Assembly (NCBI GenBank): GCA_014435945.1
Contig: GCA_014435945.1_4088.1
DNA from: a phage
Length of the DNA stretch: 64,000 bases
Strand: one strand, 5' to 3'
The position numbers were made by a program, and so were the translations under genes. The first letter of the stretch is position 1. Each line of letters starts with the position of its first letter. This document shows, in pieces, positions 47,229 to 48,428 of this stretch. The notes under the pieces are model-generated. The model worked only from the letters and a program-made list of their open reading frames with translations, did no database searches and was not told where the DNA came from.

Positions 47229-47256
47229 TTGACTAAATAGTTCAGTACTGTATAAT
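47229..47256 (+). promoter_or_regulatory. sigma70-type promoter, repeat copy 1
   Basis: TTGACTAAATAGTTCAGTACTG-TATAAT. Confidence 0.55.
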
Positions 47257-47287
47257 GTTTGTATCTTAACTTATATGGCAACTTGAT

Positions 47288-47644
47288 ATGTTTAGTGAAT
47301 ATGAAGAAGCAATAACACGCAACCTTGAAGATTTACATAACTTCCAATTTTATAATTGGGATAAACTAATGAGATTGTACTTACAGTGGGATGAAGATGA
47401 AGAAACTTCTGTTCAACGAACTGTTATGTTAAACATTTCGTTACGTAAAGATATTAGTTCAATTGATGTTGAAGTTTCTACTTATACAGGAGAAGATTAT
47501 AATCCCTTTGTTTCAGGTACTTCCCCTGTACCAAAGACAGAAGAAGAATATTTTCAAATGAGTACTGTACAAGAACCATTGTTCAGTTATGAGTTTTATA
47601 AGTACTTGATTGGTAAATTCAAAAAAATGCGAATTAATTCTTGA
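47288..47644 (+). CDS. paralog family A protein
   Basis: TEEEYFQMSTVQEP. Confidence 0.55.
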   Translation: MFSEYEEAITRNLEDLHNFQFYNWDKLMRLYLQWDEDEETSVQRTVMLNISLRKDISSIDVEVSTYTGEDYNPFVSGTSPVPKTEEEYFQMSTVQEPLFSYEFYKYLIGKFKKMRINS

Positions 47645-47669
47645 CTAAATAGTTCAGTACTGATATAAT
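47641..47669 (+). promoter_or_regulatory. sigma70-type promoter, repeat copy 2
   Basis: TTGACTAAATAGTTCAGTACTGA-TATAAT. Confidence 0.55.
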
Positions 47670-48031
47670 GAATTCCACAATCAGACGTATATGGTGTAAG
47701 TTACGTCGATGTAATCCAGAACAAGATCTCTGGTACTCTAGGAAGTGGTGAATGTTAACCTAGACGGGTTTGATAATTGGACGATAGGCAATTATTACTT
47801 GACTAGCAGGTTTAAACTAGAGGTGACAGTCCTTCACCAAACTGGAAAACCGGATGGACTTTTATTTAAAAGGGTAAGGCGTGGAAATATGTTTACAGAA
47901 GTTGCTTTTAGTAGCCTGTACGCCCCACGTCAAGGTAGCCGAAAGGCAAGTTAAAACGGGTGGTTATAAAGCTGAATTAACAGCGGCGTTTAAAAGCGTC
48001 ACCATCCATTTTTTTAATTAAAGTTGGTGAT

Positions 48032-48403
48032 ATGAGTGTTAAAGACATTTCAAAGTATGAAGAGTTTCTTAAATCATTTTTGAATTCAGAATTAACGACA
48101 GACCATACCAATAACTGGTGTCAAGATAATCCTGGTATTCGCATTTTCAATGGATATGGTGAATCATTTCTTATAAATGACGATGAAATTGTTTTTGAAT
48201 CATTTGAAGAAATAAAAAGGACAAATAACACTTTACGTGATATAATAAATAGTATAAATGCTCAATACATTACCTTCCAGCTAAGTGCTGATGAAGAAGA
48301 TGAATTTCAGAAACGCACAGTATATGAAAATGTGTTTCCACATGAATTAAATTCTGTAATATTTGAAGTGTTGGATAAGGTTTTTTCTGAAAATAGTACT
48401 TGA
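48032..48403 (+). CDS. paralog family A protein
   Basis: DEEDEFQKRTVYEN. Confidence 0.55.
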   Translation: MSVKDISKYEEFLKSFLNSELTTDHTNNWCQDNPGIRIFNGYGESFLINDDEIVFESFEEIKRTNNTLRDIINSINAQYITFQLSADEEDEFQKRTVYENVFPHELNSVIFEVLDKVFSENST

Positions 48404-48428
48404 CTAAATAGTTCAGTACTGATAAAAT
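48400..48428 (+). promoter_or_regulatory. sigma70-type promoter, repeat copy 3, upstream of tRNA cluster
   Basis: TTGACTAAATAGTTCAGTACTGA-TAAAAT. Confidence 0.5.

Follow-up and report, generated by a model that had tools for sequence, protein, structure and literature searches.

A repeated, putative portable sigma70-type promoter cassette in a 121Q-like jumbo phage

Organization of the locus

The window analysed here is a 64-kb stretch of phage DNA in which almost all of the genes lie on the + strand. The region is 93–97% identical to the Asteriusvirus E. coli jumbo phages 121Q, PBECO4, Turkey3 and EC.P1, which have genomes of ~350 kb, and we assign the window to a 121Q-like jumbo phage of Asteriusvirus on the basis of its sequence. 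Three exact copies of the 22-mer TTGACTAAATAGTTCAGTACTG are present on the + strand, at 47229–47250, 47641–47662 and 48400–48421. A search of the window with up to three mismatches returned no cassette beyond these three, and 100 dinucleotide-preserving shuffles gave zero matches to TTGACTAAATAGTTCAGTACTG, corresponding to a chance expectation of 0. Immediately 3' of the 22-mer, copy 1 continues with TATAAT, copy 2 with A and TATAAT, and copy 3 with A and TAAAAT. The exact search agrees with the initial annotation, in which the block was placed at 47229, 47641 and 48400 with differences of 1 nt in the spacer and of one base in the -10 element.

Copy 1 (47229–47256) consists of a -35 hexamer TTGACT (47229–47234), a 16 bp spacer made up of AAATAGTT followed by the box CAGTACTG (47243–47250), and a -10 hexamer TATAAT (47251–47256). 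In copy 2 (47641–47669) the same -35 hexamer (47641–47646) and box (47655–47662) are followed by an additional A and by TATAAT (47664–47669), so that the spacer is 17 bp long and ends in an extended -10 TG. Copy 3 (48400–48428) likewise has TTGACT, the box (48414–48421), an A, a 17 bp spacer and an extended -10 TG, with TAAAAT (48423–48428) as its -10 hexamer. The copies are alike from the -35 hexamer through the -10 hexamer and not beyond: a single C is common to them 5' of TTGACT, and no base is common 3' of the -10. Within the spacer lies the dyad-symmetric TCAGTACTGA, which forms a perfect 10-bp palindrome in copies 2 and 3 and matches it at nine of ten positions in copy 1. An AGTAC box abuts the -35 hexamer of copy 3 (48395–48399); copies 1 and 2 have no upstream AGTAC.

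Each copy lies on the coding strand, directly 5' of an ORF, a conserved RNA or a tRNA cluster. Copy 1 precedes a 118-aa ORF (47288–47644, + strand) which belongs to PHROG 34619 (unknown function; E = 1e-62) and has no match in Pfam. The stop codon of this ORF, TGA at 47642–47644, lies within the -35 hexamer of copy 2. Copy 2 precedes an ORF-free stretch of ~360 nt (47670–48031), followed by a 123-aa ORF (48032–48403, + strand; PHROG 38341, unknown function) with its stop codon, TGA at 48401–48403, inside the -35 hexamer of copy 3. The genes for tRNA-Ser(ACU), tRNA-Met(CAU) and tRNA-Asn(GUU) follow on the + strand at 48439–48705, the first of them 11 nt after the copy 3 -10. The 118-aa ORF, the ORF-free stretch and the tRNA genes had correctly been named in the initial annotation as the features downstream of the three copies. 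The ORFs near the cassettes have PHROG matches to which no function is assigned; further upstream, at 46170–46694, lies a gene for an endonuclease of the NUMOD4/HNH type. We note in addition that the phage would supply a rare tRNA-Ser(ACU), which reads AGU, from cassette copy 3.

Conserved RNA modules behind copy 2

The ORF-free stretch behind copy 2 is composed of two modules. RNA-A (47671–47859, + strand) is a conserved structured non-coding RNA of 189 nt which begins 2 nt after the copy 2 -10. RNA-B (~47874–48016, + strand) is a second conserved ORF-free module with a T-run at its end, and is found apart from RNA-A in some relatives. RNA-A is 94% identical in RaK2 and 87–93% identical in T4-like Bragavirus phages, with similar values in T5-like Novosibvirus. 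In Bragavirus it occupies precisely the interval from tRNA-Gly to tRNA-Asp and in Novosibvirus it sits between tRNA-Leu and tRNA-Ser, starting in both directly after the CCA of the preceding tRNA. An alignment of seven RNA-A sequences contains few substitutions, one compensatory pair and one hairpin in which the stem has been replaced by a different stem, and this supports RNA-A being a folded RNA. The single-sequence fold of the whole ORF-free stretch has z = -2.4. The RaK2 version of RNA-B is 86% identical and is preceded by a separate promoter (TTGAAC-N17-TATAAT), and in JNE01 RNA-B stands alone directly behind a cassette copy. An Rfam search of the whole window at the gathering threshold, and of 47600–48100 at E ≤ 10, returned tRNAs only, so the stretch matches no known RNA family.

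The T4 species 1 and 2 RNAs are stable RNAs encoded within the phage tRNA cluster. RNA-A resembles them in its location between tRNA genes in the T4-like and T5-like phages, where release by tRNA processing would be expected, but differs in that the RNA-A of the window has its own predicted promoter (copy 2) and no flanking tRNA. BLAST detected no sequence similarity between RNA-A and T4 itself. A 189-nt RNA is common to the tRNA clusters of three unrelated phage families.

The cassette as a probable promoter

The -35 hexamer TTGACT matches the sigma70 consensus at five of six positions, and the -10 hexamers match at all six (copies 1 and 2) or at five (TAAAAT, copy 3). Hexamers and spacing together score 10–11 out of 12, with TGn present in copies 2 and 3, and the spacers of 16, 17 and 17 bp fall within the sigma70 range of 17 ± 1 bp. 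The placement of the copy 2 -10 only 2 nt before RNA-A, and of the copy 3 -10 11 nt before a tRNA, lends indirect support to their use as promoters. In our view, the repeats are best read as paralogous lineage-specific sigma70-type promoters which are portable and which also serve as recombination joints for small modules; we assign this reading a probability of about 0.7. Host RNA polymerase (sigma70) would then be expected to start ~7 nt past each -10, and the predicted products would be an mRNA for the 118-aa ORFan, an RNA-A/RNA-B transcript and a precursor of tRNA-Ser, tRNA-Met and tRNA-Asn. Our search of the literature on RaK2, 121Q and Asteriusvirus promoters and transcriptomes found no published transcription starts, RNA-seq or reporter results.

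The identity of the spacers cannot be explained by a general promoter consensus of this phage. The window contains ~40 other sigma70-like sites, several of them perfect TTGACA-N17-TATAAT, and the spacers of these other strong promoters are unrelated to that of the cassette, which rules this candidate out. The 3' half CAGTACTG, with the preceding (T), would correspond to the conserved box of an early-region promoter class of the clade, which begins 8 nt past the -35 hexamer. Identity in the 5' half AAATAGTT is confined to the local copies, presumably because these descend from one another, and recombination would keep the local copies alike.

The clade-wide promoter class

A BLAST search with a 31-mer query found the cassette in every Asteriusvirus record, in 2–5 places per genome, and versions with 84–88% identity in the Klebsiella Alcyoneusvirus phages RaK2, K64-1 and Muenster. 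In a 12-kb early-type region of RaK2, the pattern TTGNNN-N8-(C/T)AGTACTG-(N0-1)-TATAAT stands before nearly every small ORF, often with AGTAC directly 5' of the TTG and often with a GGGG...CCCC hairpin in the leader. We pooled 51 promoters of the form TTGNNN-N-(C/T)AGTACTG-N0-2-TANNNT from RaK2, EJP2 and several IMG/VR contigs, most of the latter from 350–380-kb genomes. The same box occupies the same position, 8 nt past the -35 hexamer, in 42 of the 51, while the -10 shifts by one base; in 20 cases AGTAC directly adjoins the -35 hexamer. The early DNA of RaK2 has 22 instances of a 20-bp GTAC–GTAC spacing, which is approximately two helical turns. The AAATAGTT half varies across the class, and the three cassette copies are its only members in the 64-kb window. 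On this comparison, the 3' half of the spacer is taken to be a promoter element conserved throughout the lineage.

A scan of 185,579 bacterial and archaeal species genomes gave no match to the exact 22-mer, and a scan of IMG/VR for it matched 121Q only. The looser IMG/VR scans, for CAGTACTG-N0-1-TATAAT and for GTACTTG-N10-12-CAGTACTG, gave mostly single chance matches among the matches listed, of which the jumbo-phage contigs with multiple matches were informative. Searches of the accessible literature on RaK2, 121Q and Asteriusvirus promoters and on AGTACT over-representation found the promoter class and the motif undescribed. The RaK2/121Q jumbo phages have been used or proposed for therapy against E. 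coli and Klebsiella, and their transcription programme is essentially unmapped; the present analysis offers a concrete promoter class with a defined extra element for this group. The cassette itself is a small, putatively portable promoter that already contains a stop codon for the ORF before it, and may be suited to the engineering of these phages.

Cassettes as probable module joints in relatives

Every cassette copy with up to three mismatches was tabulated with its flanks in ten Asteriusvirus genomes, out of ~50 related. The resulting 38 copies, 30 of which are identical over the 22 nt, have seven upstream (U) and nine downstream (D) flank types, which occur in 12 combinations. The flanks occur in different pairings at the cassette: U1 joins D1, D3, D5 and D7, while D1 joins U1, U4 and U5. 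In the window, copy 1 is a U0-D0 junction, which is kept in all nine of the relatives examined, copy 2 is U1-D1 and copy 3 is U2-D2.

The variants at each flank define a small set of optional modules. U1, the flank following the 118-aa gene, leads to RNA-A in the window and in EC.P1, to a module of 70 bp that contains a 9-aa mini-ORF in 121Q, Turkey3, SD-2_S15, JP4 and PBECO4, to an extra 80-aa gene in ph0011 and BF17, and directly to RNA-B in JNE01, from which RNA-A is missing. U2, the flank following the 123-aa gene, leads to tRNA-Ser(ACU) in the window, 121Q and JNE01, and to a second tRNA-Ser together with an HNH endonuclease in Turkey3 and ph0011, where the module ends in a further cassette copy. 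The copies thus bound three optional modules (the 70-bp mini-ORF, the 80-aa gene and the tRNA-Ser with HNH) as well as one deletion. A half-cassette, in which the -35 and box are kept and the -10 is lost, is found at one joint in 121Q, SD-2_S15, JP4 and PBECO4. The window has the minimal arrangement, its copy 2 being the fused form of copies which lie 70 bp apart in 121Q, Turkey3, JP4, PBECO4 and SD-2_S15.

These junctions give good support to the recombination of a promoter module. The cassette would act as a short homology patch for a phage recombination system, allowing modules to be inserted, deleted or exchanged between relatives. In copies 2 and 3 the ORF before the cassette ends with the TGA that lies inside TTGACT, so that an exchange at the cassette would leave the neighbouring genes intact. 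The TAAAAT variant of copy 3 also accompanies U2-D4 junctions in relatives and is possibly a crossover footprint; this would require a crossover within the last 3–4 nt of the cassette, and a point mutation is therefore equally likely. Module joints of this kind would help to explain the diversification of the accessory and tRNA regions of jumbo phages.

The AGTACT excess

The core of the box is strongly over-represented outside the cassettes. AGTACT occurs 153 times in the window, seven times more often than the 21.5 expected from base composition, and CAGTACTG occurs 34 times where 0.6 are expected. The extended form TTCAGTACTGAA is found 44 times with up to two mismatches (5.7 expected), five of the sites being exact. 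Inside ORFs there are 138 AGTACT sites, compared with 36.2 ± 5.9 when synonymous codons are shuffled within genes, and these fall in the three frames in numbers of 60, 29 and 49 (both strands pooled). Six control palindromes had no excess under the same synonymous-codon shuffling of the window ORFs. Ser-Thr dipeptides are encoded as AGT-ACT in 60 of 103 cases (58%), compared with 14% under independent codon choice. The density of AGTACT in the genes of the window equals that between them, which indicates that the motif is not specific to promoters.

An excess of 7- to 22-fold was observed in every Asteriusvirus and Alcyoneusvirus locus examined and also in IMG/VR contigs, many of which come from 350–380-kb genomes. 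No excess was found in a 50-kb sample of E. coli K-12 (0.87-fold) or in T4-like loci (0.2–1.2-fold), and a single short T5-like locus has four sites where 1.7 are expected, a comparison based on few sites. The clade-wide excess points to DNA-level selection for a site that would be read by a sequence-specific, clade-specific factor. We consider it somewhat doubtful that AGTACT and TTCAGTACTGAA are the site of an undescribed DNA-binding or DNA-modifying factor specific to the RaK2/121Q-like jumbo phages. If this were true, approximately one AGTACT per 400 bp would mark the phage chromosome, at ~11 times the density in the 50-kb host sample, and early-type promoters would be gated by a pair of sites, 20 bp apart, on either side of the -35. 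The three cassettes would represent, locally, a system of self-DNA marking and regulation that extends over the whole genome, and codon choice would also have been altered by selection for the motif, as in the 58% of Ser-Thr pairs noted above. The AGTACT selection and RNA-A are side observations that may prove to outweigh the cassette itself.

Origin of the copies and role of the box

Two other accounts of how the copies arose bear on the recombination reading. The initial annotation had offered duplication or recombination of a promoter module; the second is borne out by the shuffling of flanks in ten genomes, whereas a simple recent duplication is contradicted by the presence of copies at orthologous sites in ~50 genomes. 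The clade-wide class, the AGTACT excess and the occurrence of RNA-A across phage families go beyond the initial annotation. We regard it as very improbable that the copies are recent neutral duplicates which have no common function beyond that of a promoter and which are identical merely because they are young. The identity of the three over 22 nt within 1.2 kb is what such youth would produce, but the flanks have no common sequence, the identity stops exactly at the promoter core, and the conservation at orthologous sites spans E. coli and Salmonella phages, with the box half extending to Klebsiella, Yersinia and metagenomic relatives. The extra copies and modules could instead have been spread by homing of the HNH gene next to them, through double-strand break repair and co-conversion of the flanks, the cassette being a passenger. 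An HNH gene precedes the U3 copy before tRNA-Ser(ACU) in Turkey3, ph0011 and JP4, the HNH gene of JNE01 ends just 5' of the U6 copy, and the U3-D2 junction is also found in EC.P1; the NUMOD4/HNH gene of the window, at another tRNA-flanking site (46170–46694), is an 82%-identical paralogue. Endonuclease-driven homing is a fair alternative for the HNH-containing module. As an account of the copies in general we consider it unlikely, given that the mini-ORF module, the 80-aa-gene module and the deletion of RNA-A in JNE01 involve no endonuclease gene and yet have cassettes at their ends.

The other question concerns the protein that reads the box. CAGTACTG could be contacted by RNA polymerase, its TG being the extended -10 in the copies with 17-bp spacers; it could also be a feature read by a phage RpoD-like sigma factor or an operator for a dimeric factor. 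A phage sigma would use the box and AGTAC to discriminate the cassette from ordinary sigma70 promoters. An RpoD-like sigma factor is encoded in the clade, many class members in RaK2 and EJP2 with a non-consensus -35 (TTGCAT, TTGTAT or TTGCAA) keep the box, and the window has a separate, boxless set of perfect TTGACA-N17-TATAAT promoters. The near-consensus hexamers of the three window copies, for which the host enzyme would be expected to suffice, and the position of the RaK2 class before small-ORF arrays typical of immediate-early genes, which are transcribed before any phage protein is made, nevertheless lead us to judge this quite unlikely. We regard it as a tentative possibility that the box is an operator: a dimeric protein, phage-encoded or delivered with the virion, would bind TCAGTACTGA, which extends to TTCAGTACTGAA, and also the AGTAC 20 bp upstream in those promoters that have it. 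Three features make a spacer-encoded operator plausible, namely the dyad symmetry of the box, its constant distance from the -35 where the -10 moves by 1 nt, and its membership of a motif that is enriched genome-wide; the perfect palindromes of copies 2 and 3, the near-perfect one of copy 1, the two-turn spacing of the GTAC cores in RaK2, the TTCAGTACTGAA family and the larger palindromes ATTCAGTACTGAAT (49231) and TATTCAGTTCTGAATA (49350) in a nearby ORF-free stretch are in keeping with this. The genome-wide excess of AGTACT makes the operator more credible, although it does not amount to proof. Against it, copies 1 and 2 lack the upstream box, AGTACT is equally dense in genes and between them, and the TG of the box doubles as the extended -10 in the copies with 17-bp spacers. 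Candidate sites that bracket the -35 could allow a protein to switch the promoter class on or off together, and the operator is compatible with the preferred reading of the cassette as promoter and recombination joint.

Two known binding sites were compared with the box and rejected. The LexA SOS box, CTGT-N8-ACAG, consists of two half-sites 8 bp apart; copy 1 (CTGTATAATGTTTGTA) has the left half-site alone, without ACAG. The SlmA site has the consensus GTGAGTACTCAC and requires G/C flanks around its core (GAGTACTC), where the cassette has C...G (CAGTACTG); of the 153 AGTACT sites in the window, just 14 have G at -1, fewer than have any other base.

Comparison with known phage promoter systems

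The T4 early promoters have been described as 'UP/-35/TGn/-10' with extra consensus positions (Hinton 2010, PMC2988021). The cassette is like them in being of host-sigma70 type, with very good hexamers, TGn and extra conserved positions. By description it is set apart by an 8-bp palindrome that forms a separate element with constant spacing from the -35, in many cases together with a second AGTAC box, and by the enrichment of its extra motif across the genome. Related jumbo phages within the same broad group are CBB and GAP32 (Buttimer et al. 2017, PMC5259590) and PA5oct (PMC7318152), for which the main texts give predicted RpoD-like promoters as a -35/-10 consensus only. These phages have their own sigma factor and TTGAC/TATAAT-type motifs before arrays of small early ORFs, as described in those main texts, which contain no mention of a spacer box, an AGTACT motif or a cassette-bounded indel. 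The RaK2 paper reports no promoters.

A close parallel is the promoter-early stem-loop (PeSL) of T4-type phages, a repeated sigma70-type promoter located between small ORFans (Arbiol et al. 2010, PMC2839356; Comeau et al. 2014, PMC4122927), at which recombination between neighbouring elements leads to excised mini-circles (PMC2839356, PMC4122927). The cassette shares with the PeSLs a short, repeated, near-consensus sigma70-type promoter among small ORFans in a plastic region. In both, the element bounds the indels and replacements that distinguish close relatives, some joints carry degraded half-elements, and the proposed role is that of a homology patch which brings its own promoter. Unlike a PeSL, the cassette has no terminator-like stem-loop immediately upstream: the predicted folds of the 60 nt 5' of the three copies are no more stable than those of shuffled controls (z = -0.13, +0.08 and +1.53), and a terminator scan upstream of the copies returned no site. 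The absence of this defining stem-loop rules out full membership, and we have not filed the element as a PeSL for that reason. The cassette differs further in that two of the three copies precede RNA genes, so that a Shine-Dalgarno sequence and start codon are not part of it, in the overlap of copies 2 and 3 with the stop codon of the upstream ORF, in its conserved palindromic spacer box, which is undescribed for PeSLs, and in its host, a ~350-kb RaK2-like jumbo phage outside the T4 group proper. As far as sequence comparison can define it, the cassette is best described as a portable lineage-specific sigma70-type promoter and module joint, a pattern matching that of the PeSLs without the stem-loop, and it would extend the use of promoter cassettes as recombination joints from T4-type to jumbo phages.

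AGTACT motif and associated elements

The hexamer AGTACT occurs 153 times in the window compared with 21.5 expected, and the extended form of this over-represented motif is (T)TCAGTACTGA(A). The excess extends over the whole window, with sites for example at 30817, 31802, 45387, 49232 and 51311. Within the ORFs 138 sites are present against 36 ± 6 after synonymous-codon shuffling; these are found in all three reading frames, and AGT-ACT encodes 58% of the Ser-Thr pairs. The excess is also present at loci L005, L129, L011, L056, L093, L143 and L235 from other phages or contigs, and across the loci examined AGTACT is over-represented clade-wide in the RaK2/121Q-like jumbo phages. 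It was not seen in the E. coli sample or in T4-like loci, and the T5-like comparison consists of a single short locus with four sites versus 1.7 expected. A literature search found no explanation of the excess.

We note that an ORF-free stretch (49208-49394) upstream of the triple tRNA-Thr array contains two long palindromes of the AGTACT family, ATTCAGTACTGAAT at 49231 and TATTCAGTTCTGAATA at 49350, which are spaced about 120 bp apart.

Relatives usually have a conserved leader hairpin, …CATAGGGG-loop-CCCC…, no more than about 15 nt downstream of the -10 of their early-region boxed promoters (TTGNNN, a (C/T)AGTACTG spacer box and a -10 element), as at L005 (RaK2, 231.5-243.5 kb), L129 (EJP2), L056 and L011. 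Promoter and hairpin together form a longer composite element. The hairpin is absent from all three copies of the promoter cassette in the window (47229, 47641 and 48400).

tRNA region and conserved RNA modules

The tRNA-Ser at 48439-48530 has an unusual anticodon, ACU, which reads AGU. AGT, which forms one half of the enriched AGTACT motif, is the most frequent serine codon in the window (32%), and this tRNA may be the phage's supply for a codon imposed by the DNA motif. The tRNA-Met(CAU) identified by ARAGORN at 48538-48627 is 90 nt long; in relatives a 72-76 nt tRNA-Met or tRNA-Ile2 is annotated, followed by a gap up to tRNA-Asn. The surplus length in the window may come from an insertion or from a long variable arm.

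Three tandem tRNA-Thr(UGU) genes (49805-50038) have near-identical Rfam scores. As 121Q, ph0011 and SD-2_S15 have one copy and Turkey3, BF17 and JNE01 have two, the copy number changes by tandem duplication.

A NUMOD4/HNH homing endonuclease gene (46170-46694) is inserted between tRNA-Arg and an array of three tandem 54-aa ORFs (46733-47219; PHROG 10970, unknown function). It shares 82% identity with the HNH gene of Turkey3, ph0011 and JP4, which is located elsewhere and adjoins a copy of the cassette; endonuclease genes are therefore mobile within this tRNA region. The tandem ORFs, which overlap head to tail (ATGA), share the N-terminus MTHEEWM. The window has a further, fourth paralogue at 45035-45205, and the number of copies in relatives is two or three.

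Two conserved ORF-free modules, RNA-A (189 nt; 47671-47859) and RNA-B (47874-48016), follow the second cassette copy, and the corresponding loci in other phages are L249 (2501-2689), L251 (2501-2684), L252 (2501-2683) and L250 (2500-2894). RNA-A is annotated in none of the phages carrying it, and an Rfam search gave no match. Versions with 87-94% identity occur in Klebsiella jumbo phages, in T4-like Bragavirus and in T5-like Novosibvirus; in the latter two groups the RNA is exactly flanked by two tRNA genes. RNA-A seems to be a stable and mobile RNA belonging to phage tRNA clusters.
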